DNA from: Candidatus Enterousia sp.
GTDB lineage: Bacteria; Pseudomonadota; Alphaproteobacteria; Rs-D84
Assembly: GCA_045635825.1 (NCBI GenBank)
Contig: JAZTWM010000004.1
Span: 7,363-71,362, forward strand
DNA length: 64,000 nt
Direction of reading: 5' to 3'
Part shown: one piece after another, positions 2,629-24,539 of the stretch
Layout of the letters: every line of letters starts with the position of its first letter
Numbering within the stretch: the first letter of the stretch is position 1
Position numbers and translations under genes: made by a program
Notes under the pieces: generated by a model
What the model was told of the DNA's origin: nothing
The model's database searches: none
Seen by the model: only the letters and a program-made list of their open reading frames with translations

Positions 2629-5589
2629 ATGAGAAAGATTGCAATTTTATCTATGTTGCTGGCTGTTTTTGTGGCGGATTCGCATGCTGCGATACGTCCA
2701 ACAGGTGGGCGTGCATCACGTGGTCCATCGTCTGCTGGTTCAACTGCAACAACATCAACCAAGGCGGTTGGTGCACGTTCTGCACGTACATCGACAACTG
2801 CAAAAAAGCCTGCTGTTGCGGCACGTGCGGCATCTAATTCTAAGACCGCGCCCAAGGCAACAGTTGCGGCACGTGCGGGGGTGACACAAAAGGTTATTGG
2901 TACAGGCACCAAGGTTGCAGCGGCGGCAAAGAATGTTGTGGTCAGTGAAGAATGTCAGGCCAAGTATGATGGATGTATGGATTCTTTTTGTATGCTGGAT
3001 AACGAGACCGGGGGCAGATGCTTATGCAGTGATAAAAATGCAGAGTTAGATGCAATCTTGGCTGAAATTGAAAAGTTAGATCAGCAATCTTATCAAATGG
3101 CGACATTTGGGGTCGAAAAAATTGAAATGGGTGCAGATGCAGATGCCGCGATTGCCAGTGCAAATGCAGCGGCACAATCTGTTATCAAGGAAACGGAATC
3201 AAAAAAAACAGCACGTAAAGCATTGGATTTATCGCTGTGGGATGAACCGGTTGATTTAGATGATACGGATGATGTTTTTGGTGGAATGGCATCATCACCG
3301 GTTGATGGCAAAGAAGGGGATGCGTTGCATCGTGCGGCAGCCCAGTTGTGTGTTGCCCAGATTCCAGAATGTGCGGGTGATTTAGATATGCTGCAGATGA
3401 TGTATGCACAGCGTATCAAGTCTGATTGTACGGCATATGAGAACAGTTTGAAGCAGCAAAAAAAATCCAGTACACAAAAATTGGCGACTGCAGAAAAAGC
3501 ATTAAGAGAGGCGGCGTTAGAGCAACTGCGTACAGCAAACAAATATGATTTAGGCCAATGTACGGTTGAGTTTAAAAAGTGTATGCAGACAACCGGTGGT
3601 TGTGGTGATGATTTTGCACAATGTGCATCGGTTGTTGCGTCTGATAATACGAATTTGAACAAATCTACATCCAGAAAACAGAAAAATTATGCGATCAAGG
3701 GGGCTGTGACCACGATTGAAATCTCTGCATCTACGTATGATGCATTGATGGCTAAAAAGCCCTTGTGTGAATCTGTTACAAAGTCTTGTGTTAATGTCGC
3801 AGGACAGGTGTGGGATACTTTCCTGCGTGAAGTCGCACCGCAAGTTAAAAATGCTGAATTGATTGCAGAAGATAAAGCAAGACAAGACTGTATCGGTAAT
3901 ATCTCTTCCTGTTTCCAAAAGGCCTGTAAGGATACAATGGATCCTAATGACCCAGATGGTTCATATGATATGTGTTTGTCCAGACCAGAAACCATGCTGA
4001 ATCTTTGTAAGATTCCTTTGAATGCATGTGGTATTGATGCTTCTTCTGCAGACAAGGCACAAGATTCTATGATCTGGGACTTCGTGGTCGCTAGACTTGC
4101 TTCTATGAGAGTTGATTCCTGCACAACAGAGGTTAAACAATGTTTGCAAAGCGATGATAGATGTGGTGAAGATTATGCTAATTGTATCGGATTGGATACG
4201 GATACAATAATTCGTATGTGCCCATATGATAAATTGACTGGCTGTCAAAAGGTTTATGGCGAAACTGATATTCGTGGTGATGCGGTTTATGAAGAGTTGG
4301 CCATGATGGTTCAGGGAATTATGCTGAATATTGATAATAACTTTATGGTTCAATGTCAAAATGCAGCGAATGAAGCCATGTTAAAGGTGTGTGGTGATAC
4401 AGAAAACTGTAATGCATTGACCACCGATAGCGGAATTGGTGCACGTGCATTGGATTATAAGATTTGTGAATATTCTGGTTCAGAAGATAGTCTGGATATT
4501 GATTATAACAAGTGTAGAACAGATATTTCACAAGTTTTGGACAGCGAATTGGGGCGTGTTGAAGGTGCAACCAGTGCCGGTTTGGGTGCGGTCACACCAT
4601 TCGCAGGCGTTATAGATGGTGTTATTTATTGGGAATCTGTGGACTTTGATGATGATGGAAAACTGATTTCTGTTGATGAATATTTGGCCAAGTTGGATGA
4701 CGCCAACATTTCTGCCCAGCAAAAAGAAAAAGTAAAATCTGAATTGGCGGTTTTGCAACGTAATATTGATGTTGCAATAAGTGCAATTGAATCTGATCCA
4801 ACGGTTCAATATTGTATGACAGGACGCGAAGTTCAGGGTATGAAAAAAATTGACAAAGACGGCGTTGCTACACGTACGCGTATTGGCGAAAAAAGTGCAG
4901 ATGCGGCACGCTTCCCAGAATTGACCAAGCAAATGCGTATGGTTATTGCGTCCGCGGCATTAAAAAAGGCCAAGGATAACTATTACAAAAAGTATGACGA
5001 GTTAAATGATAAAATGTTGCAGGATTATGCGACCTTGGGCGAGCGAATTTCAAAGATTCAAGGCGAAAATTCATTGGATGTAAAACGTGAATTGGCACGT
5101 AAATCATGTGTTGCATTTGTAGACATGGCATCTTTGCCAAAGTCACCAAATCCACCAAAAAGTGCATTTGGTAAAATTGCGGCCATGGTTGCAATTGTTG
5201 GTGCTGCGGTTGCAATTCCATTTACGCTTGGTACATCAACAGTTGTAATTGGTGCATTGACAGTGACAACTACTACAGGTGTAGGTGCATCCGCTGCAAT
5301 TGGTGCAGGCGCGGCAGTAGTTGCAGGTATTGGTATGTTGGGTAACGCTGGTTCTGGGAAAGCAAATGGCGAAGATAGCAAGGGGGTATTGGATTTGGTT
5401 GGTTCCAAGCAGCTTAATCAATGGAATTACAAGGAAACGATCACCACAACATTTGATTGGGATAAATTGATCTGTAAAAAATGTACACGTACACAAAAAT
5501 GTTCCAAGACCAAGAATCCGTTGTTTGGTAATAAATATTGTAAAACATGGGCGGATGCGGTTGAAACATGTAATGACACCCAGTTCTAA
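2629..5589 (+). CDS. secreted cysteine-rich repeat protein (family member A)
   Basis: 986 aa, RBS GGAAGGGA. Signal peptide MRKIAILSMLLAVFVADSHA, then an S/T/A/R-rich linker and CQAKYDGCMDSFC-x9-CLC. Modules QCTVEFKKCMQTTGGCGDDFAQC and SCTTEVKQCLQSDDRCGEDYANC. Gly/Ala-rich hydrophobic segment at aa 847-910 and tail VETCNDTQF. Collinear paralogue of 24966 and 27187. Confidence 0.85.
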   Translation: MRKIAILSMLLAVFVADSHAAIRPTGGRASRGPSSAGSTATTSTKAVGARSARTSTTAKKPAVAARAASNSKTAPKATVAARAGVTQKVIGTGTKVAAAAKNVVVSEECQAKYDGCMDSFCMLDNETGGRCLCSDKNAELDAILAEIEKLDQQSYQMATFGVEKIEMGADADAAIASANAAAQSVIKETESKKTARKALDLSLWDEPVDLDDTDDVFGGMASSPVDGKEGDALHRAAAQLCVAQIPECAGDLDMLQMMYAQRIKSDCTAYENSLKQQKKSSTQKLATAEKALREAALEQLRTANKYDLGQCTVEFKKCMQTTGGCGDDFAQCASVVASDNTNLNKSTSRKQKNYAIKGAVTTIEISASTYDALMAKKPLCESVTKSCVNVAGQVWDTFLREVAPQVKNAELIAEDKARQDCIGNISSCFQKACKDTMDPNDPDGSYDMCLSRPETMLNLCKIPLNACGIDASSADKAQDSMIWDFVVARLASMRVDSCTTEVKQCLQSDDRCGEDYANCIGLDTDTIIRMCPYDKLTGCQKVYGETDIRGDAVYEELAMMVQGIMLNIDNNFMVQCQNAANEAMLKVCGDTENCNALTTDSGIGARALDYKICEYSGSEDSLDIDYNKCRTDISQVLDSELGRVEGATSAGLGAVTPFAGVIDGVIYWESVDFDDDGKLISVDEYLAKLDDANISAQQKEKVKSELAVLQRNIDVAISAIESDPTVQYCMTGREVQGMKKIDKDGVATRTRIGEKSADAARFPELTKQMRMVIASAALKKAKDNYYKKYDELNDKMLQDYATLGERISKIQGENSLDVKRELARKSCVAFVDMASLPKSPNPPKSAFGKIAAMVAIVGAAVAIPFTLGTSTVVIGALTVTTTTGVGASAAIGAGAAVVAGIGMLGNAGSGKANGEDSKGVLDLVGSKQLNQWNYKETITTTFDWDKLICKKCTRTQKCSKTKNPLFGNKYCKTWADAVETCNDTQF

Positions 5590-5614: not shown

Positions 5615-6653
5615 AAATTTCCGTTATGTCTGTTATGACGGTTATGCCGGCGGATTGCCATTCTGTGATATAGTTGTCCAGATCCAGAATATTTGTCGCC
5701 CCCAGATAAATTACGGGGTGTAATTCGTGGTCGTTGGCATATTGTGTGACCTGGGCGATTGGGGATGGGCGAACCTTGCCTGATGCAAACCAGTTTTCTG
5801 TGTCAATAACCCAAAAGTCGGGGTCTGTATGGCATGCGATTGCATGGGTGTCTGTTACGATTAAGTCATTGATAATTTGGTATGGACGGTTGTTGCTTTC
5901 CAGATGCTCAACCAGTTTTGTTAGGTCTGTTGCGTAATCGGTGTTTGGTGTGTTGTTTGGGGCCTCTGTTTCTGTTTCTGTTTCTGTTTCTGTTTCTGTT
6001 GGGGCGTCAAAATCTATGGTTGAAAATGTTGGCATTTCTGTAAATACTGGTGTGTTGTCCATTTCAACAGGTATGTCAAAATCGGTTGGTAATGGGAATG
6101 TGTCGCCAGACATGTCTGTTATGTCGGATGTATTTTGTGGTGCTGTATTGATGTCGGGTGTTTGTTTGATATCAATACTGTTGAAAATAGAAGTTTGTGA
6201 TTGGCCCATGTGGTGGTGGGCGCGTCTGTATGCGGGACGTAATTCCGCAGGAATATCAGGTGATAAATCAACCTTGATGGTTTCTTCGTCTGGACCCAAA
6301 GATGGCGTGTCGCCACTTGATTCTGGTGTGGTGTCATCTGTTGCTTTTTTTGTTGGGCGTAAAAACTTTGGTAATGGGATTTTGGGCAGTGGTACCGTTA
6401 TCAATGGTTTTTTTGTGCGGATGATTAATGTTGTGCTGGCCATGTACAGGGGCAGGGCGGCCAAAATTAATAGGCCAAATACGTGCCCTGCAAATCCATG
6501 CAGGCGTGCGTGCATCAGACGGTGCCACATGTGTCCATCAAACATATTAAAATTAAACAAGAAATACAAAATTGCCCACATGACGATGATATAGCCAATC
6601 GTCCACTGTATGGCGTGTTTGTGGTTCTTGAAGATGTCTGTTATCTTTTTCAT
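5613..6653 (-). CDS. membrane protein with acidic low-complexity linker and (TE)6 repeat
   Basis: 346 aa; two N-terminal hydrophobic segments (WTIGYIIVMWAILYFLF, VFGLLILAALPLYMASTTLII); P/D/T-rich linker including TETETETETETE; globular C-terminal approx. 110 aa of unknown family. Confidence 0.7.
   Translation of the reverse strand: MKKITDIFKNHKHAIQWTIGYIIVMWAILYFLFNFNMFDGHMWHRLMHARLHGFAGHVFGLLILAALPLYMASTTLIIRTKKPLITVPLPKIPLPKFLRPTKKATDDTTPESSGDTPSLGPDEETIKVDLSPDIPAELRPAYRRAHHHMGQSQTSIFNSIDIKQTPDINTAPQNTSDITDMSGDTFPLPTDFDIPVEMDNTPVFTEMPTFSTIDFDAPTETETETETETEAPNNTPNTDYATDLTKLVEHLESNNRPYQIINDLIVTDTHAIACHTDPDFWVIDTENWFASGKVRPSPIAQVTQYANDHELHPVIYLGATNILDLDNYITEWQSAGITVITDITEI
5965..6000. repeat. 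(TCTGTT)6 hexanucleotide microsatellite
   Basis: Six perfect tandem TCTGTT units read on + strand; encode (TE)6 in the minus-strand gene 5613-6653. Confidence 0.95.
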
Positions 6654-17491: not shown

Positions 17492-18628
17492 TAAACTGTT
17501 TATTAGTTCAAGAATTTCTGCGGTTATTTTTTTGGGGTTAAAACGGTTTAATGATAACTGACTGTTTTTGATTATTTCTTGTCGTGGAATACGATTATGA
17601 TATATGTTTGACATGATTTGTGATAAAGCATGTTTGTCGCCAATATTAAATAATAGACCTGCTGTGCCATTTAAGAGTATTTCTTGTGCACCGTTTTTGT
17701 GCTGTGTTGAAATGTTTAGTGTGCCAACAGATGCCGATTCTAATAATACCATTCCAAAACCTTCGCTGTGACTGGATAATATGTGTGCCATAGATTTTTG
17801 CATATAACCAAAGGGATTAGTTTGTGTGCCTAGGAAGATAATATGTTCTTTGGCGGTGCTTTGATTTGCATGTTGTTCAAGACCGGTTCGATTTGGGCCG
17901 TCCCCAATAATCAATAGTTTTATATCGGTTGTATTTTCAGTTCTTAGGAAAATGGTAAATGCATCAATTATTGTATGGATGTCTTTCGGGCTGCCTAGTC
18001 TAGATATAGAGCAGAAGTATCGACCGGGATATGTGGGGCCTGTTTTTGCTTTGGTAATAATATGTTCTGGTGTAATAGGATTATATATCCGAATGATTTT
18101 GCTGGAATGTGATGGATAGTGTAATGTAAACTCGTCTTTAAATTCATCTGTTAATACAACCATTTTATCATAATATTTCAACCTGTTGATAAGTTTGCTT
18201 TTTTGAAAGAAGTCAAAAGAGCCATGACACCATGTTATTTTTGGGGTTTTGATATGCCGTAGTTCCTTGAAAAAGGATGCGTTTTTATAGTCTATGTATA
18301 TATCATGATTGTTGATATGGAATATTGAACGTCTGTACATTTTATATAAACTGAAGATTAGTTTACGCAGATTTTTGAGAGGGAAAAAATTTGTGCTTTT
18401 TTTTAGGTTTTCAAAATATGGTAACATGGGATAGATGACTTTTAGTTTTATTTCTGGGTGATGGTTAAACCAATCTTGGTAATATTTTTCTTGTAGTTTG
18501 GATTGCATATATACTGATATTTTTAGGTCGGGATATTTTAATAGTTCTTCTAGGGTGGAAATAAATACTGTTTCAACGCCCCCAACAATCATGTCGGGAA
18601 TACAAAAGGCAATTTTTTGTTTGTTCAT
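17489..18628 (-). CDS. glycosyltransferase, GT4-like (GT-B fold)
   Basis: ORF-track start 18709 is rejected because a terminator hairpin lies inside that extension. ATG at 18628 gives MNKQKIAFCIPDMIVGGVETV... EGFGMVLLESASVGT matches the E-x7-E GT4 motif. Confidence 0.85.
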   Translation of the reverse strand: MNKQKIAFCIPDMIVGGVETVFISTLEELLKYPDLKISVYMQSKLQEKYYQDWFNHHPEIKLKVIYPMLPYFENLKKSTNFFPLKNLRKLIFSLYKMYRRSIFHINNHDIYIDYKNASFFKELRHIKTPKITWCHGSFDFFQKSKLINRLKYYDKMVVLTDEFKDEFTLHYPSHSSKIIRIYNPITPEHIITKAKTGPTYPGRYFCSISRLGSPKDIHTIIDAFTIFLRTENTTDIKLLIIGDGPNRTGLEQHANQSTAKEHIIFLGTQTNPFGYMQKSMAHILSSHSEGFGMVLLESASVGTLNISTQHKNGAQEILLNGTAGLLFNIGDKHALSQIMSNIYHNRIPRQEIIKNSQLSLNRFNPKKITAEILELINSL

Positions 18629-18658
18629 TTTCTTACTTCTTTTTTGTTCGTTTTTTAT

Positions 18659-18886
18659 TGGAAAAAGAAAAGACCACATATTTTGTGGTCGGGAAGTTAA
18701 GAAAATCATACACTAAATGACCCCACCGGTTTTTGGAGTTTTTCCTGTTGTATGACCGGTGGCTTCCCGACATTATGGTGTCGAGAAAATGGCACGATGT
18801 GTGCCTGGTATTAATGGATTACGACAGTTAATGCCGTAGTGTACGGGTTTTCTTACGACCCCGAAGCCTTATCCCTAAGGTTTCGA
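18659..18886 (-). promoter_or_regulatory. candidate structured 5' leader (riboswitch/attenuator-like) or independent sRNA upstream of the glycosyltransferase gene
   Basis: Downstream of the promoter at 18893-18921. The minus-strand RNA has local hairpins CCUUA/UAAGG, GGGU/ACCC, CGUA/UACG, GGCAC/GUGCC, CGACA/UGUCG and CCACCGGU/ACCGGUGG. It ends in GACCACA-loop-UGUGGUC plus UUUUCUUUUU (18659-18690), 30 nt before the ATG at 18628. Confidence 0.5.
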
Positions 18887-18892
18887 TTTTGG

Positions 18893-18921
18893 ATTATATA
18901 TAGTAGGGCGTTGGATTTCAA
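18893..18921 (-). promoter_or_regulatory. sigma70-type promoter, TTGAAA-N17-TATAAT
   Basis: Read on minus strand: perfect -10, 5/6 -35 and 17-nt spacer. Divergent from the rpoA promoter. Confidence 0.65.
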
Positions 18922-18934
18922 GTCGTTTATCTAT

Positions 18935-18963
18935 TTGACTTTTGGGTTTTGTTGATATAAAAT
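18935..18963 (+). promoter_or_regulatory. sigma70-type promoter for rpoA, TTGACT-N17-TAAAAT
   Basis: 5/6 matches in both hexamers and a 17-nt spacer. About 70 nt upstream of the rpoA ATG. Confidence 0.6.
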
Positions 18964-19034
18964 ATCGACCGCATGTGCGTTGTGTACATGGCCGTTTTGG
19001 CGAAAATGATAAACTAAGCTAAAAGGAAACTTAA

Positions 19035-20063
19035 ATGATTGAAAAAAATTGGATGACCTTGATTAAGCCAAAAAAGCTGACAATCAAGCAAGATGAACAT
19101 AATCCTAATATTGCAACTTTGATCGCAGAACCATTGGAAAAAGGATTTGGTTTGACATTGGGGACTGCTTTGCGTCGTGTATTGCTGTCTTCTTTGCAGG
19201 GCTGTGCACCAATTTGCATTAAAATTGACGGCGTTCAGCATGAATTTTCCAGCATTTCTGGTGTTCGTGAAGATGTAACAGATATTATCTTGAACTTGAA
19301 GGGTGTTTATTTCAAGGCATTAACAGAAGGCCAGCACAAGGCATTTTTAAAGGTTAAAGGTCCCGCAGTTGTTACAGCAGGTATGATTGAAACAACAGGT
19401 GGTGTCGAGGTTATGAACAAAGATGCTGAAATATGCACTTTGGATAAGGGTGCAAATTTGGATATGGAAATCACATTGGGTACAGGTCGTGGTTATGTTC
19501 CTGCATCACAACATGCAGATGGTTTACCATTGGGTGTTATTCCAGTTGATTCTATCTTTTCACCAATCTTGAACGTTGCAAGTGATGTTTTGCCAACACG
19601 TGTTGGTCAGTCAACAGACTTTGATAAGTTGGAATTGACAGTTAAGACAAATGGTTCTGTTACACCAGAAGATGCGATTGCATTTGCGGCACGTATTTTG
19701 ACAGACCAGTTGGTTGTATTCATTAATTTTGAAGATCCTGCACAGTTAAATGCACCAACCGAAGAAGAAAAAGCAAAAGATGCATTGCCATTTGATCCAA
19801 AGTTGTTAAAGCATGTTGATGAATTGGAATTGTCAGTTCGTGCGAATAACTGCTTGAAGAATGATAAAATCAATTGGTTGGGTGAATTGGTTCAAAAGAC
19901 AGAAGCCGATATGTTGAAGACACCAAACTTTGGTCGCAAGTCTTTGAACGAAATCAAGGTTCAGTTGGAAGCCATGGGATTGGGCTTGGGTATGGAAGTA
20001 CCAGGTTGGCCGCCAGAAAATATTGCTGAATTGGCCAAAAAGTACGAAGACCCATACAAATAA
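19035..20063 (+). CDS. rpoA: DNA-directed RNA polymerase subunit alpha
   Basis: 342 aa. N-terminal domain [22 protein letters not shown]-terminal domain [45 protein letters not shown]. Confidence 0.97.
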
Positions 20064-20075
20064 ATTAAAATATAT

Positions 20076-20385
20076 GGATTCTTGTTGTGTTTGTCGGTCC
20101 TTATGTAGGTCAACTACACTGCGGACCGTCAAGCACTTCCAATAATCTCATATCTTTTAATTTCTTGGCTGGGCAAGGGGATTCTTGTTGTGTTTGTCGG
20201 TCCTTATGTAGGTCAACTACACTGCGGACCGTCAAGCACTTCCAATAATCTCATATCTTTTAATTTCTTGGCCAGGCAAGGGGATTTTTGGTATGTTTAT
20301 CGGTCCTTGTGTGGGGCAACTGCAACGGGGACCGGTAAAGCATTTCTAATAATCTTATATCTTATAGTTTCTTAGCAGGGCAGGG
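20076..20385. repeat. 3 x approx. 103-bp tandem direct repeat in the rpoA-rplQ spacer
   Basis: Copies start at 20076, 20179 and 20282. Copies 1 and 2 differ only by TG>CA at unit positions 95-96. Copy 3 is 104 nt and roughly 80% identical by manual alignment. Each unit contains an imperfect hairpin closed by CGGTCC...GGACCG. Confidence 0.95.
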
Positions 20386-20402
20386 AGTGAAGTAATATTT
20401 TC

Positions 20403-20430
20403 TTGCAATTTGCATGAAATTATATAGAAT
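20403..20430 (+). promoter_or_regulatory. possible promoter for rplQ, TTGCAA-N16-TAGAAT
   Basis: Moderate matches to -35 and -10, 97 nt upstream of the rplQ ATG and downstream of the tandem repeats. Confidence 0.35.
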
Positions 20431-20526
20431 AGAACGGATTTAATTCCACAATACTGGTTGAAATCAGGTTGTGGGCGTCTCAAGAATCCCACTAATTTCG
20501 GTGGGCAGAAACAAAAGGAGTAATCG

Positions 20527-20967
20527 ATGAGACATATGAAAGCAGGTCGTACATTCAATCGCGACACAAATGCACGCAAGGCCCTGTTTATTGGTCTGGC
20601 AAAAAACTTGATTGAAAAAGAACAGATTAAAACAACTTTGCCAAAGGCAAAAGATTTGCGTAGTGTCGTTGAAAAATTGATTACTCGCGCCAAGGTTGAT
20701 ACAGTTGCAAATCGTCGCTTGACAGCATCTGAATTGGGTAATTCTTCTGCAAAGACAGTTAAGAAATTGTTCGAAGTTTTGGGCCCACGCTATGCAACAC
20801 GTCCAGGTGGTTATACACGTGTTTTGAAGGCTGGTTTCCGTTATGGTGACGCAGCACCAATGGCGATTATCGAATTGGTTGATCGTGATGTAAATGCCAA
20901 GAAAGCAGCACCTGTTGCAGAAGTTGTTACAGAAGAAGTTGCTGAAACAAAGGCAGATGCAGAATAA
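20527..20967 (+). CDS. rplQ: 50S ribosomal protein L17
   Basis: 146 aa, [30 protein letters not shown]...[23 protein letters not shown] is typical L17. Confidence 0.95.
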
Positions 20968-21044: not shown

Positions 21045-21761
21045 TTAATTTGTTTTGTTTTTGAATGCAATGCTTTTTTTGTCTGCAGATGTTTTATACA
21101 TATCTTGGAATTTATTTTTGGCATCTGCCATTGTTTGTGGTGCGTTGCCCTGGGGGGCGTAGATGTCGGCACCGTTTAGTACAATCAGTCGTGATGGTGT
21201 GATTGTGTTGCCTTCGCAGTCAATATAATATTTGTTCTGGTCAAAATGTTTGCCATAACATTGGCCGTTTTCCACTGCAACATAACCATATTCTGCCAAC
21301 TTTGTGCATGTTGGTTGGGTGCCAAATGTTATTTCGCCATTTGGTGTTGTTTCGTCAACCCTGTCCAGAATGCCATGGCACCATACTTGGACATATTTGC
21401 CGTTTACCATTGTTTCTGTGCCGTTGTTTTTGGTTTTTCTTTGTCCATAGCAGTCGCCATATGCAGATAGTTTATTTGTGTCAAAGTCGGCATTGACATA
21501 AGAGGTGTTAGATATTTCTTTTTTTGGTAATGGGGTGTTGCCAGAACTGTTCTTTAATGCTTCGGCACATATAATTTTTTGTCCCCAACATTTTGAACCG
21601 TTGTCCCATAATTCGGTGTCAAATCCGGCCCCCATTGCAGAGTAGCAACGACTGGGGTCCAGGCGGCATACAGTTGGTTGTTCCCACCATGGTGTAAATG
21701 CGTTGGCGGAATTGTATATTCCCAGGATTGCTGTAATGAAAAAGATATATTTTTTATTCAT
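21045..21761 (-). CDS. secreted protein with about 10 Cys
   Basis: ATG at 21761 (RBS AGGAA) gives the signal peptide MNKKYIFFITAILGIYNSANA. The ORF-track start 21842 adds an unlikely polar extension. Lies immediately downstream of member D on the same strand. Confidence 0.7.
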   Translation of the reverse strand: MNKKYIFFITAILGIYNSANAFTPWWEQPTVCRLDPSRCYSAMGAGFDTELWDNGSKCWGQKIICAEALKNSSGNTPLPKKEISNTSYVNADFDTNKLSAYGDCYGQRKTKNNGTETMVNGKYVQVWCHGILDRVDETTPNGEITFGTQPTCTKLAEYGYVAVENGQCYGKHFDQNKYYIDCEGNTITPSRLIVLNGADIYAPQGNAPQTMADAKNKFQDMYKTSADKKSIAFKNKTN

Positions 21762-21847
21762 TTTTATTTCCTGTTTTCTGTTCATTTTATCATTTTTTGT
21801 TGTTTTTCGCAAGGTTTGGTGGTTTGTGTCATTCTTGCTCAATTAGT

Positions 21848-24469
21848 TTATTTGTGGTCCGCACAATATCCCCATTGTGTGTTTGCGGCTGTTTCTTTGT
21901 TGAATGTTGGATGTATTGGATCGCCTGTGATGTCGTGGCAACCATCGGTCTTTTCTGTTATGCCGTCGCCCTCCGTTGAACATGTGCCGTATGCACAACA
22001 TGTTTTGTTTTGTACTTTATCTACCCAGACAGAGTCGACCCAAATACCCCCCAGGCGTTCACATTCTTGTGACAGGGCGTTTGCCATATCTATGTGCAGT
22101 TGGTTCATAACAATGTTTACGTCTTGCAGGATGTTTGTTGGTAATACATCGCTGGATTGGGATGGGCGGACGCATGTTTGCATGGCATAACGAACAAGTT
22201 TTTGATAAAGACTGCCGACATAGTCGTCGCATTCGTTATCTTCTGTGGTTGGGGAATCGCTAATTACTATTTCTTTAGGTTTGTCGGTTCCGCCTGCACA
22301 GGTGTAGCCCGAAGGGCATGGTTCGCATGTGTTGTCGACTTGAGGGGTGCTATCGGCCTTGCCGTTATATTGCATATAGTATCCAGCAGCACAACTGGTG
22401 TATGCACAAATTGGGGCGGCGGTTCCACCAGGGTATGTGCATATTGCACCTTCGCGGGCTTTTATGCATGTGTTTCCAACGGTTGGGGTGCCGTTGTGTT
22501 CTGTGCCAGATGGGCCTGCCATATAGGAACCTGCAGGGCATGATGTGTATATTTTGCCACAAGTGTATGTAGGGTCCGTTACCGGTGTTGGGCGTGTTCC
22601 TTGATAATCGTCTTGTGTTGTAGTGTTGGATTCGCCAGGGGAACCGTTACCGCCGATTGTTTGGTCTGTGCTGGTGGATGTGGTATCCTGGTTGCATTTG
22701 GCAATTGTGGCGTATTGCTGACTGCCGGGGGCATAGACACGACATGTATATGGGTAGGCGTGCAGAGTGTCGTTGCTGGGGACGGCACACATGTTTTTTG
22801 CAAAGTCTATCAGGGTTTCACGACATTGTAGGCCGATTTGCAGGTCTGTTTTGTCGTGCATTGCGGTCAGTAGTGCCTGCATCCCATCAGGGCCGCCACC
22901 ATACAGGTTTGAACATGTGTCTAATTTTTCTTGGCACATTTGTTCGGCCAGTTCCAGGCGTGCACCAATTAATAGTTGTTCGTTTGTATTGCTGAAATCT
23001 TTTAGGGATTGGGTTTGTTCGTCATAGCATTTGTTAACCACGTCAAGACATTCGTTTTTTACCTGGCGGATGCGTTCGTGTTGACCTTGGTAGATTTCTG
23101 TGATTGCCTGGCGTAGAAATTCGTCCCATACATCATCGGCCAAATCGCGACATGTGTCTAGACTGTTCTTGGCAAAAGGGCGCATGGAGTTCAGTTTTGC
23201 AATTAACATTCTGTTGGTTTGGTTTGTTAGGATGTCGCCAGATAGTGAGATTTGAGATTCCAGTTGATAAAAATTAGGGCTGTATATTGGTTCGCCGGTT
23301 TCGTATGTTAGGTACAATCCAGTGATGTCTAGACAGTGGACATAGTCTGTGCCGCATGCAGTGTTGGCTGTGATATCTGTGCGAACCAATGACATGCAGT
23401 CATTGATTGAAGATGAATTGTGGGTGTTATAGTTTTCAAGGCGGGCCAGATTCATTTCACGTTCTGTTGAACGAATGGCGCTGTTTGCTTCAACTAGTTT
23501 TTTGTCCAGACCGTTTAGTACAATTGAGCAGTCGTTTTCTATATACATGCCGTATGCAGAGACCACCATATTTTGTGTGGTTTTGTCTGGACATTTATCG
23601 ATTGTTATTTCGGCACATTGTGCGTGTACGGCATTATACAGTGCTTCGCCAGATAGGTTTGCAATATTTACGCCGCCCGTTAAATCTGTGGTTGCCCAAA
23701 TAGAGTTTATGTTGCCTGCAATATCAAGTGTGCCTTGGGTTGATAATGATTTGGTTTTGGATTTGGATAATACATCAGTGATGCCTGCAAGTTGTAGTGC
23801 GGCATCGGACGAGTCTTTGTTGGCAGATTGGTATAGTTCACCACTGGATGCGGATATCATTGCGTTAACTTCGTCTGCGGATTTATCAATTACAGACAGG
23901 TTCAGTATATGGAAATCTTGTAATGAATTTGATGACTGGCTTAGGGCGCGTTCACGTTCTTGGACGGCAGATAGTTTGGACGAGCATACGCAGCGACGGT
24001 ATGTGTCGTTGGCGGTTCCGCAAAATTGATCCATGCATGTAAAATATGCGTCACGACAAGTGTTGTATCCGGTGCCGAATGTGTTCGATTGTGTGGTGTT
24101 AAGTGTTATTGTTGCACGTGCGGTGTTTTTTGTGTTCTGGGGATTAGAACTGAGACGTATGGCTGTCTTGTTTTGTTGTGTGCGTAGGCGACTGTTGCTT
24201 GGTGTTGTGCGTGTTGTAACAGATGCGGGGGTTGCAGTGCGTGCAGATACTGTGTTTTGACGATTGGTATTTACGGGTTTTGTGGTACGTTGTAATTTGC
24301 GCTGGACCGTAGCACGTGCAGCGGTGCCTTCGTTTCGTGTGTTTGTGATGGTTCGTTGTGTGTTAGTGTTCGTGTCGCCACGATGTATAGTGTTTGCATC
24401 ACGAACAGCAGCGTCAGCATTGCAGACGCCCAGGATAATAGCCAGGGAAAGTTTTATAATCCTTCTCAT
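21848..24469 (-). CDS. secreted cysteine-rich protein (family member D) with C-terminal C-x-x-G-Y-type repeats
   Basis: Start chosen at MRRIIKLSLAIILGVCNADA (24469). T/N/R-rich linker, then TCRDAYFTCMDQFC-x9-CVC. C-x6-C pairs (ECLDVVNKC, MCQEKLDTC). C-terminal SCPAGSYM, SCAAGYYM and EPCPSGYTCAGG repeats. Confidence 0.8.
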   Translation of the reverse strand: MRRIIKLSLAIILGVCNADAAVRDANTIHRGDTNTNTQRTITNTRNEGTAARATVQRKLQRTTKPVNTNRQNTVSARTATPASVTTRTTPSNSRLRTQQNKTAIRLSSNPQNTKNTARATITLNTTQSNTFGTGYNTCRDAYFTCMDQFCGTANDTYRRCVCSSKLSAVQERERALSQSSNSLQDFHILNLSVIDKSADEVNAMISASSGELYQSANKDSSDAALQLAGITDVLSKSKTKSLSTQGTLDIAGNINSIWATTDLTGGVNIANLSGEALYNAVHAQCAEITIDKCPDKTTQNMVVSAYGMYIENDCSIVLNGLDKKLVEANSAIRSTEREMNLARLENYNTHNSSSINDCMSLVRTDITANTACGTDYVHCLDITGLYLTYETGEPIYSPNFYQLESQISLSGDILTNQTNRMLIAKLNSMRPFAKNSLDTCRDLADDVWDEFLRQAITEIYQGQHERIRQVKNECLDVVNKCYDEQTQSLKDFSNTNEQLLIGARLELAEQMCQEKLDTCSNLYGGGPDGMQALLTAMHDKTDLQIGLQCRETLIDFAKNMCAVPSNDTLHAYPYTCRVYAPGSQQYATIAKCNQDTTSTSTDQTIGGNGSPGESNTTTQDDYQGTRPTPVTDPTYTCGKIYTSCPAGSYMAGPSGTEHNGTPTVGNTCIKAREGAICTYPGGTAAPICAYTSCAAGYYMQYNGKADSTPQVDNTCEPCPSGYTCAGGTDKPKEIVISDSPTTEDNECDDYVGSLYQKLVRYAMQTCVRPSQSSDVLPTNILQDVNIVMNQLHIDMANALSQECERLGGIWVDSVWVDKVQNKTCCAYGTCSTEGDGITEKTDGCHDITGDPIHPTFNKETAANTQWGYCADHK

Positions 24470-24539
24470 TCGTGTATATATATAATATACTTTACCAAAA
24501 AATGGTTTTTTTAACAAGAAAAATACATAAAGATGCTAT

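Follow-up and report, generated by a model that had tools for sequence, protein, structure and literature searches.

Candidatus Enterousia belongs to Rs-D84, an order with genomes mostly below 1 Mb; these bacteria are uncultured and widespread in mammalian and termite guts (PMC12306168). Here we describe a structured RNA found in a stretch of 64,000 nucleotides (nt) from a Candidatus Enterousia genome (contig JAZTWM010000004.1, positions 7,363 to 71,362), hereafter called the window. On the minus strand, positions 18921-18628 hold, in order, a promoter, a structured stretch of about 225 nt (18886-18662), an intrinsic terminator, and the ATG of a gene for a GT4 glycosyltransferase. The RNA belongs to a multi-copy family, conserved in structure, that is absent from Rfam and previously undescribed; a structured leader followed by a terminator is itself a well-known kind of element.

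The promoter, TTGAAA-N17-TATAAT (18921-18893, minus strand), has a match score of 11/12. The terminator (18690-18662) is a G+C-rich hairpin, with a stem of 7 bp that includes four GC pairs, followed by the U tract UUUUCUUUUU. The GT4 gene starts at the ATG at 18628, 33 nt 3' of the U tract. The public gene call P0001, an open reading frame (ORF) of 406 amino acids (aa), starts at 18709, inside the RNA; the true start is 18628. This call and several homologues of 396-416 aa extend the GT4 ORF into the leader, from an invariant UAUGAU. The best relatives of the GT4 protein in NCBIfam and PDB are surface-glycan enzymes of the PglJ/PglH/WaaB type, all scoring far under the family cut-offs. On the opposite strand, rpoA-rplQ begins at 19035 and has its own promoter at 18935-18963. 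A preliminary description of the locus, made from the sequence, had reported the promoter, a canonical terminator shortly before the GT4 ATG, and a series of local hairpins between them. Its coordinates and listed features are correct, and its hairpins correspond to P0, P2, P4, P5, P6, and the terminator in the list that follows, which runs 5' to 3' along the transcript.

18916..18921, minus strand: -35 hexamer TTGAAA of the leader promoter; most homologues have a TTG-type -35, with a spacing of 16-18 nt
18893..18898, minus strand: -10 hexamer TATAAT; predicted transcription start near 18886
18862..18885, minus strand: P0, the 5'-terminal hairpin CGAAACCUU-AGGGAUA-AGGCUUCG, with a conserved loop GGGAU; helix 1, compensatory in 5/5 pairs
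18839..18862, minus strand: 5' strand of the closing rod, comprising segment a (CGGGG), the P1b strand GUAAGAAAA, segment e (ACCC), and the P1c strand GUACAC; helices 2-5
18820..18838, minus strand: P2 hairpin UACGGCAUUAACUGUCGUA; helix 6, compensatory in 5/5 pairs
18815..18819, minus strand: linker AAUCC, which may make a tertiary contact with the P0 loop GGGAU
18791..18805, minus strand: P4 hairpin GGCACACAUCGUGCC, a variable decoration missing in minimal members
18790-18784, minus strand: U-rich junction AUUUUCU, which precedes P5
18766..18785, minus strand: P5 hairpin, segment b (CUCGAC) with segment c (GUCGGG); helix 7, paired in 97.4% of alignment cells
18763..18771, minus strand: segment c, GUCGGGAAG, whose alternative partner is segment d' (18696-18688)
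18723..18762, minus strand: P6 hairpin with the conserved internal loop AUACAAC / AAAAA; helix 8, compensatory in 4/4 pairs
18714..18722, minus strand: junction GGUCAUUUA, in which GGUCAUU is more than 90% conserved and unpaired
18688..18713, minus strand: 3' strand of the closing rod, comprising GUGUAUG, UUUUCUUAAC, and segment d (CUUCCCGAC); the family's most conserved stretch
18662..18690, minus strand: intrinsic terminator, stem GACCACA/UGUGGUC, loop AAAUA, U tract; its first 3 nt are common with segment d'
17489..18628, minus strand: GT4 glycosyltransferase gene, 379 aa, without room for a promoter of its own
17490..18932, no strand assigned: cassette of promoter, leader, and GT4 gene (1.44 kb), present in the window and in loci L001 and L003, not in L002, L005, L006, and L009

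Structure and covariation of the RNA family

The 236-nt window transcript folds with a minimum free energy of -80 kcal/mol, against -48.7 +/- 4.0 kcal/mol for 200 dinucleotide shuffles (z = -7.84), none of which was as stable. Within the rod, P1 pairs CGGGG with UCCCG; P1b, UAAGAAAA/UUUUCUUA, covaries to UUAG/CUAA, GACA/UGUC, UCGA, and UCAA; and P1c is variable and strongly covarying. The P0 loop (GGGAU) and the linker (AUCC) may form a tertiary contact. Both motifs are present in 50 copies, the loop motif alone in 9, the linker motif alone in none, and neither in 10, counts that ignore phylogeny.

A degenerate pattern built from the conserved 3' part of the RNA retrieved 34 true loci in GTDB species representatives and 45 metagenome copies. 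A covariance model, R1, was built, and 71 copies were aligned to it. The family thus has at least 71 copies, 190-260 nt in length, which fall into 63 clusters at 90% identity and have a median pairwise identity of 0.51. Covariation, which the preliminary description had named as a check, is strong: changes on both sides occur in 29 of 36 pairs (549 cells; 71 sequences). In the same alignment, standard pairs occupy 96.9% of cells, versus 30-57% when the partners are slid by one to three columns, and none of 500 shuffles reached the observed value on any of five measures. For 35 sequences, RNAalifold predicted 36 pairs, 25 of them with compensatory changes. The 71-sequence alignment was fitted to R1, which favours structure; an independent MAFFT alignment yields the same helices. 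The helices are kept by compensatory changes in diverged homologues, as in a conserved structured RNA. Covariance-model scores were 93-217 bits for the forward strand and 14-30 bits for the reverse strand; G-U pairs and these weak reverse-strand scores fix the transcribed strand.

Homologues of the GT4 protein, at 40-70% identity, occur in metagenome-assembled genomes (MAGs) of uncultured Alphaproteobacteria and "Rickettsiales." The same RNA lies upstream of GT4 orthologues with 57-70% aa identity at loci L011, L013, L015, and L016; among these orthologues the RNA is conserved more than the protein, and compensatory changes are visible. It was not found before the GT4 homologues in L014 and L017. 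The MAGs that carry the family are named Alphaproteobacteria bacterium, Candidatus Enterousia, or Rickettsiales bacterium, and come from the guts of humans, mice, rabbits, ruminants, and termites. At least two to four copies are present in several of the genomes, in tandem in L022 and as divergent pairs in L030, L035, and L041; blastn and nhmmer found no second copy in the window or in the close-strain loci. Minimal members (L022 and L024) retain just the rod, P5, and P6.

The RNA was compared with the 4227 models of Rfam 15 using cmscan. At the gathering threshold, the whole window gave just one tRNA, and 13 homologous loci gave just tmRNA, tRNA, and 5S rRNA. At E<=10, region 18550-19050 gave chance matches of 8-24 bits, against cut-offs of 65-90. 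ARAGORN identified tRNA-Ala alone, elsewhere in the window, and no tmRNA at the region. A full-text literature search found no paper pairing Rs-D84 with riboswitch or structured-RNA terms. These searches agree with the preliminary description, which had recognised no known class. Its proposed resemblance of AAUACCAGG to part of the thiamine pyrophosphate (TPP) aptamer did not hold up: this segment sits in a linker that is unconserved among homologues, and the THI-box model of the TPP riboswitch (RF00059), which includes the conserved CUGAGA, gave no match even at E<=10. Two further candidates were rejected by inspection. For an ANTAR-regulated leader, which has two tandem hairpins with hexaloops (A at position 1, G at position 4), the second of them overlapping the terminator, just the P0 loop AGGGAU fits, and the terminator-adjacent hairpin is the rod or P5, with variable loops. 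For an internal promoter with TATGAT as its -10 box, there is no -35 at usable spacing.

It is very improbable that the region instead codes for a leader peptide, a type I toxin, or some such small protein in an ORF that starts at the invariant UAUGAU (MIFLTSRPP...). The RNA would then be an mRNA with long-range 5'-3' pairing and a short ORF inside it. In favour of this, the 5'-3' rod does recall the toxin mRNAs hok and aapA, the AUG never varies, and the encoded peptides, of 10-50 residues, are hydrophobic. Against this, the AUG lacks a Shine-Dalgarno (SD) sequence and lies inside a helix, and the ORF passes through the terminator and beyond the U tract, so that terminated transcripts would have no stop codon. 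After residue 9 the peptide tracks the covarying terminator stem, neither frame nor length is conserved, and no conserved ORF runs through the RNA. The lack of a conserved frame, the lack of an SD, and the overrun of the terminator led us to reject both a leader-peptide attenuator and a type I toxin mRNA.

Association with accessory envelope genes

About 60 independent loci share the layout of promoter, RNA, terminator, and gene noted in the preliminary description. In nearly every copy, a TATAAT or TATACT box lies 7-8 nt ahead of P0, with a TTG-type -35 at 16-18 nt, and the 3' end is a terminator with a covarying stem followed by a U tract. Because the -10 box is fixed at this distance from the 5' hairpin in nearly all homologues, it is unlikely that a transcript from about 18886 is absent. 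A co-oriented ORF follows 10-165 nt past the U tract in about 50 of 60 distinct loci; only an SD lies between the RNA and the ORF, so these genes must be transcribed through the terminator. Across homologues the RNA therefore has the position of a cis-regulatory leader, in the 5' untranslated region of a nearby, co-oriented gene.

About two thirds of the downstream genes encode small signal-peptide proteins with 5-11% cysteine, from several families. Glycosyltransferases account for about 10 (GT2) and about 6 (GT4); RgpF, LicD, a lipoprotein, a Band-7 protein, and a few more are single cases. The subtype of the RNA corresponds to the class of the gene downstream. The ORF that follows a leader copy (5660-5850, minus strand) in L024 encodes a 233-aa signal-peptide protein of a gut alphaproteobacterium that matches the Pfam Colipase N-terminal (E 5e-12) and C-terminal (E 8e-7) domains, a eukaryote-like cysteine-rich fold.

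Strains were compared through contigs that encode exactly identical RpoA. L001 and L003 carry the same GT4 gene with an RNA 100% identical to that of the window. In L002, L005, L006, and L009 the upstream 1207-aa gene is directly followed by rpoA, and comparison of the junctions defines a 1.44-kb indel (17490-18932) that comprises exactly the promoter, RNA, and GT4 gene. The RNA and the gene are therefore gained or lost together, as a single accessory unit. The covariance model found no match in L002 or L004. The empty site in L002 (2860-2900) holds 21 unrelated bases and no clear flanking repeats; no convincing direct repeats were found at the cassette borders, and no recombinase genes flank it. 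L004 differs again upstream of rpoA, where it has an OEP-domain gene and a 554-aa ORF. In the related species at L013, a cassette of leader and GT4 gene separates rpsK from rpoA and points the opposite way.

Leader copies also lie 0.1-3 kb from tmRNA or tRNA genes, which suggests that leader-led genes cluster in variable regions beside RNA genes. The tmRNA genes are of the two-piece alphaproteobacterial type (L022, 3819-4197; L030, 4072-4449; L031, 4575-4948), and the tRNA genes near leader copies are in L025, L029, L030, and L041.

These data bear on a second explanation, which we regard as unlikely, namely that the family is a multi-copy, trans-acting small RNA (sRNA) of about 220 nt that has its own promoter and a constitutive terminator and binds a protein or other RNAs. 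Its location before envelope genes would then be a coincidence, or leaky read-through would suffice to express those genes. Copies carry a complete promoter and terminator, the fully closed rod would make a very stable species, and several copies occur per genome, some of them without a co-oriented downstream gene (the L022 tandem, the L030 copy that faces a tRNA gene, and the convergent L089 copy). GGUCAUU and AUA-AAC are conserved and unpaired and could be contact sites. On the other hand, the co-oriented ORFs in about 50 of 60 loci stand too close to the U tract to have a promoter of their own; such an orientation bias is unexpected for free-standing sRNA genes and argues for cis action. 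The joint gain and loss of RNA and gene, and the correspondence between RNA subtype and downstream gene class, also speak against an sRNA.

Alternative pairings and a proposed model of conditional termination

The family is most invariant in two GGGA-type segments, a (UCGGGA) and c (GUCGGGAAG), and in three UCCC-type segments, b (CCCGAC), d (CUUCCCGAC), and e (UCCC). The stable fold contains the pairings a:d, which is P1, and b:c, which is P5. Segment c is also perfectly complementary to d plus the first nucleotides of the terminator stem (together d', CUUCCCGAC). Across 71 sequences this 9-bp c:d' helix is paired in 97.2% of cells and compensatory in 5/9 pairs. Position 348:487, for example, is AU in 47 sequences, GC in 17, and unpaired in 7; it lies within AAG:CUU, which is unpaired in the stable fold. 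The preliminary description had anticipated this alternative as a pairing of CUUCCCGA with UCGGGAAG, which proves to be conserved family-wide (97% of cells paired, compensatory in 5/9 pairs). The other partner it had named, GGCUUC, is part of the 5' hairpin, in whose 3' strand the sequence varies, and is peculiar to the window copy.

As isolated duplexes, c:d' has a median of -19.2 kcal/mol, the rod base -15.1, and b:c (P5) -11.4; c:d' is the strongest of four. A local a:e hairpin also covaries, with 96% of cells paired; position 37:55 is AU in 28 sequences, UA in 4, and CG in 1, and the window subtype has U:A in a:e where P1 would give U-U. When 3' halves alone were folded, c:d' formed in 66/71 sequences, and the full 9-bp helix, found in 39/71, shortened the terminator stem from about 8-9 bp to 4-5 bp. 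Two other pairings gave less signal. Pairing between the U tract and the SD region is frequent in folds, weakly above composition-matched shuffles (mean z -0.6), and pairing of segments 1:2 (the 5' strand with the U-rich junction and b) has a median of -9.7 kcal/mol, against -7.5 with shuffled partners; in the window, 1:2 is not above background.

We lean, with modest confidence, towards the reading that the family is a new leader that acts in cis and uses conditional intrinsic termination to control accessory envelope genes. Each copy, with its own predicted sigma-70-type promoter, folds into four parts: P0; the closing rod (P1/P1b/P1c); a junction with P5, P6, and, optionally, P2-P4; and the terminator. 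An accessory envelope gene, which in the window is the GT4 gene, has its start codon 10-60 nt past the terminator. In the proposed OFF state, the rod (segments 1:4), P5 (segments 2:3), and the terminator would form, and the gene would be off. In the proposed ON state, the 5' strand would be withheld, so that c would pair with d' and the resulting helix would invade the base of the terminator and allow read-through. What withholds the 5' strand might be the local a:e hairpin, the binding of a factor or ligand, or the kinetics of folding. A switch of this kind would explain the invariance of the switching segments, since each must serve two partners.

Several points weigh against this reading. 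Termination, read-through, and the 5' end are all predicted from sequence. In the full-length window RNA the stable fold beats a forced c:d' pairing by 13 kcal/mol, and the fold of the window 3' half has just 6 bp of c:d' and an intact terminator. The overlap of c:d' with the terminator is only 2-4 nt. Segment a is nearly a repeat of c, and b of d, which makes part of the alternative complementarity automatic, and a few lineages, and not many events, could account for the concerted changes. Because the overlap is small and the repeats make some complementarity automatic, we infer the switch and its direction rather than observe them. The conserved nucleotides are mostly in helices and not in a junction pocket, which is less typical of small-molecule aptamers and equally compatible with a protein or RNA factor. 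The layout also has exceptions: no ORF lies between the tandem pair of L022, one L030 copy faces a tRNA gene, and the L089 copy (10597-10825, minus strand) is convergent with a gene for a secreted collagen-like protein with a GATGPQG repeat (9890-10537, plus strand). At L089, read-through past the terminator would give a transcript antisense to the collagen-like gene. Finally, clustering of the 1494 ORFs of all loci revealed no candidate ligand or regulator gene recurring nearby; the only recurring families were secreted Cys-rich proteins and glycosyltransferases.

The thermodynamic dominance of the stable fold also speaks for another explanation, in which the leader senses nothing and is the 5' module of a mobile or duplicating promoter-leader cassette. 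Its role would be in stability or processing of the mRNA, or in keeping read-through at a fixed, low level, and it would spread with accessory surface genes by recombination. The same leader stands before unrelated genes within one genome, the promoter-leader-gene unit shows cassette-like presence and absence, and copies lie beside tRNA and tmRNA genes, typical variable regions. However, a stabiliser needs neither a conserved intrinsic terminator immediately before the SD nor conserved, covarying, mutually exclusive pairings, and the cassette is flanked by neither repeats nor recombinase genes. We consider this explanation quite unlikely.

A bolder form of conditional termination, which we hold to be possible and somewhat doubtful, is that the RNA is a new riboswitch class or a new factor-dependent attenuator that senses a signal and co-regulates most of the accessory "surfaceome" of gut Alphaproteobacteria with genomes below 1 Mb. 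Its targets would be secreted Cys-rich, partly eukaryote-like proteins and surface-glycan enzymes, and one fold, reused many times per genome, would replace protein regulators. More speculatively still, terminated leaders might act in trans on sibling leaders through a/c versus b/d pairing and so coordinate surface genes. The downstream gene set is heterogeneous, so no ligand can be inferred from the genes. Enzymes of cyclic di-GMP (c-di-GMP) metabolism were sought by tblastn with GGDEF and EAL queries, and none was found in 730 kb of related loci, which is a weak negative.

Whatever the mechanism, these genomes carry several copies of one RNA fold, about 225 nt long, in front of genes expected to shape the cell surface. 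The family is of interest because it abounds in very small genomes, covaries strongly, and is clearly linked to host-facing genes. Should it prove to be a sensor, it would define a new orphan class of riboswitches or attenuators whose regulon is unusually clear, and would offer a handle on what these organisms sense. The family, being absent from Rfam, can enter annotation, where it corrects gene calls with a start inside the RNA, the 406-aa GT4 call among them.

Known systems and neighbouring features

Among the closest parallels are the second-messenger riboswitches for c-di-GMP with terminator expression platforms, c-di-GMP-I/GEMM-I (RF01051) and c-di-GMP-II (RF01786), which share the order of promoter, structured domain, terminator, and gene, occur in many copies per genome, and have a heterogeneous regulon, mostly surface or secreted proteins and glycosyltransferases and not one metabolic pathway. 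They match the family in neither sequence nor structure: here there is a 5' hairpin, a rod of about 25 bp, and a junction of three to six helices, and conservation is concentrated in repeated helix segments.

In its pairing scheme the family resembles four-segment attenuators and antitermination leaders (trp/his, PyrR, BglG/SacY ribonucleic antiterminator, ANTAR, T-box), in which exclusive helices, 1:4 plus 2:3 versus 3:4, lie beside a terminator and the switching segments are invariant because each pairs with two partners. It differs in having no leader peptide, no match to the T-box or any other Rfam leader, and just one ANTAR-like hexaloop (P0), with no second hairpin overlapping the terminator; its alternative helix overlaps the terminator by only 2-4 nt.

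The Brt RNAs of Bartonella are multi-copy alphaproteobacterial RNAs of about 200 nt with their own promoter and terminator, located before genes for XRE-type regulators. The family is like them in being genus- or order-restricted, multi-copy, about 200 nt long, equipped with a promoter and a terminator before a gene, and found in host-associated Alphaproteobacteria; its downstream genes differ, and the comparison is by description only. Type I toxin mRNAs (hok and aapA1) are likewise self-contained transcripts of about 200 nt in which a rod joins the 5' end to the 3' end, and they too are accessory and multi-copy. The family, however, has no translatable toxin ORF or antisense partner, and a co-oriented gene usually follows it.

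Outside the window, the start codons of GT4 and GT2 genes are immediately preceded by another long, conserved hairpin (GGUGGGUG...ACCAGUUGUU...CACCCACC), at L014 (2380-2475), L015 (215-310), and L016 (1040-1130), and also in L031 and L044. It stands 3' of the leader terminator or, in L014, alone, has no Rfam match, and may be a separate gene-proximal regulatory element. Also in L014, a gene with an Mtd_N domain (4769-5401) adjoins a glycosyltransferase cluster; this domain forms the N-terminal part of the major tropism determinant, which diversity-generating retroelements target.

Around the leader in the window, rpoA-rplQ is separated from rpsM-rpsK (13838-20967). The 1207-aa ORF upstream (13838-17461) has no Pfam or NCBIfam match and is one of five window ORFs of 265-1207 aa without a Pfam family, the others being at 9950-12004, 12026-12892, 21045-21842, and 21848-24517. 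GC skew is positive over all 64 kb of the window.

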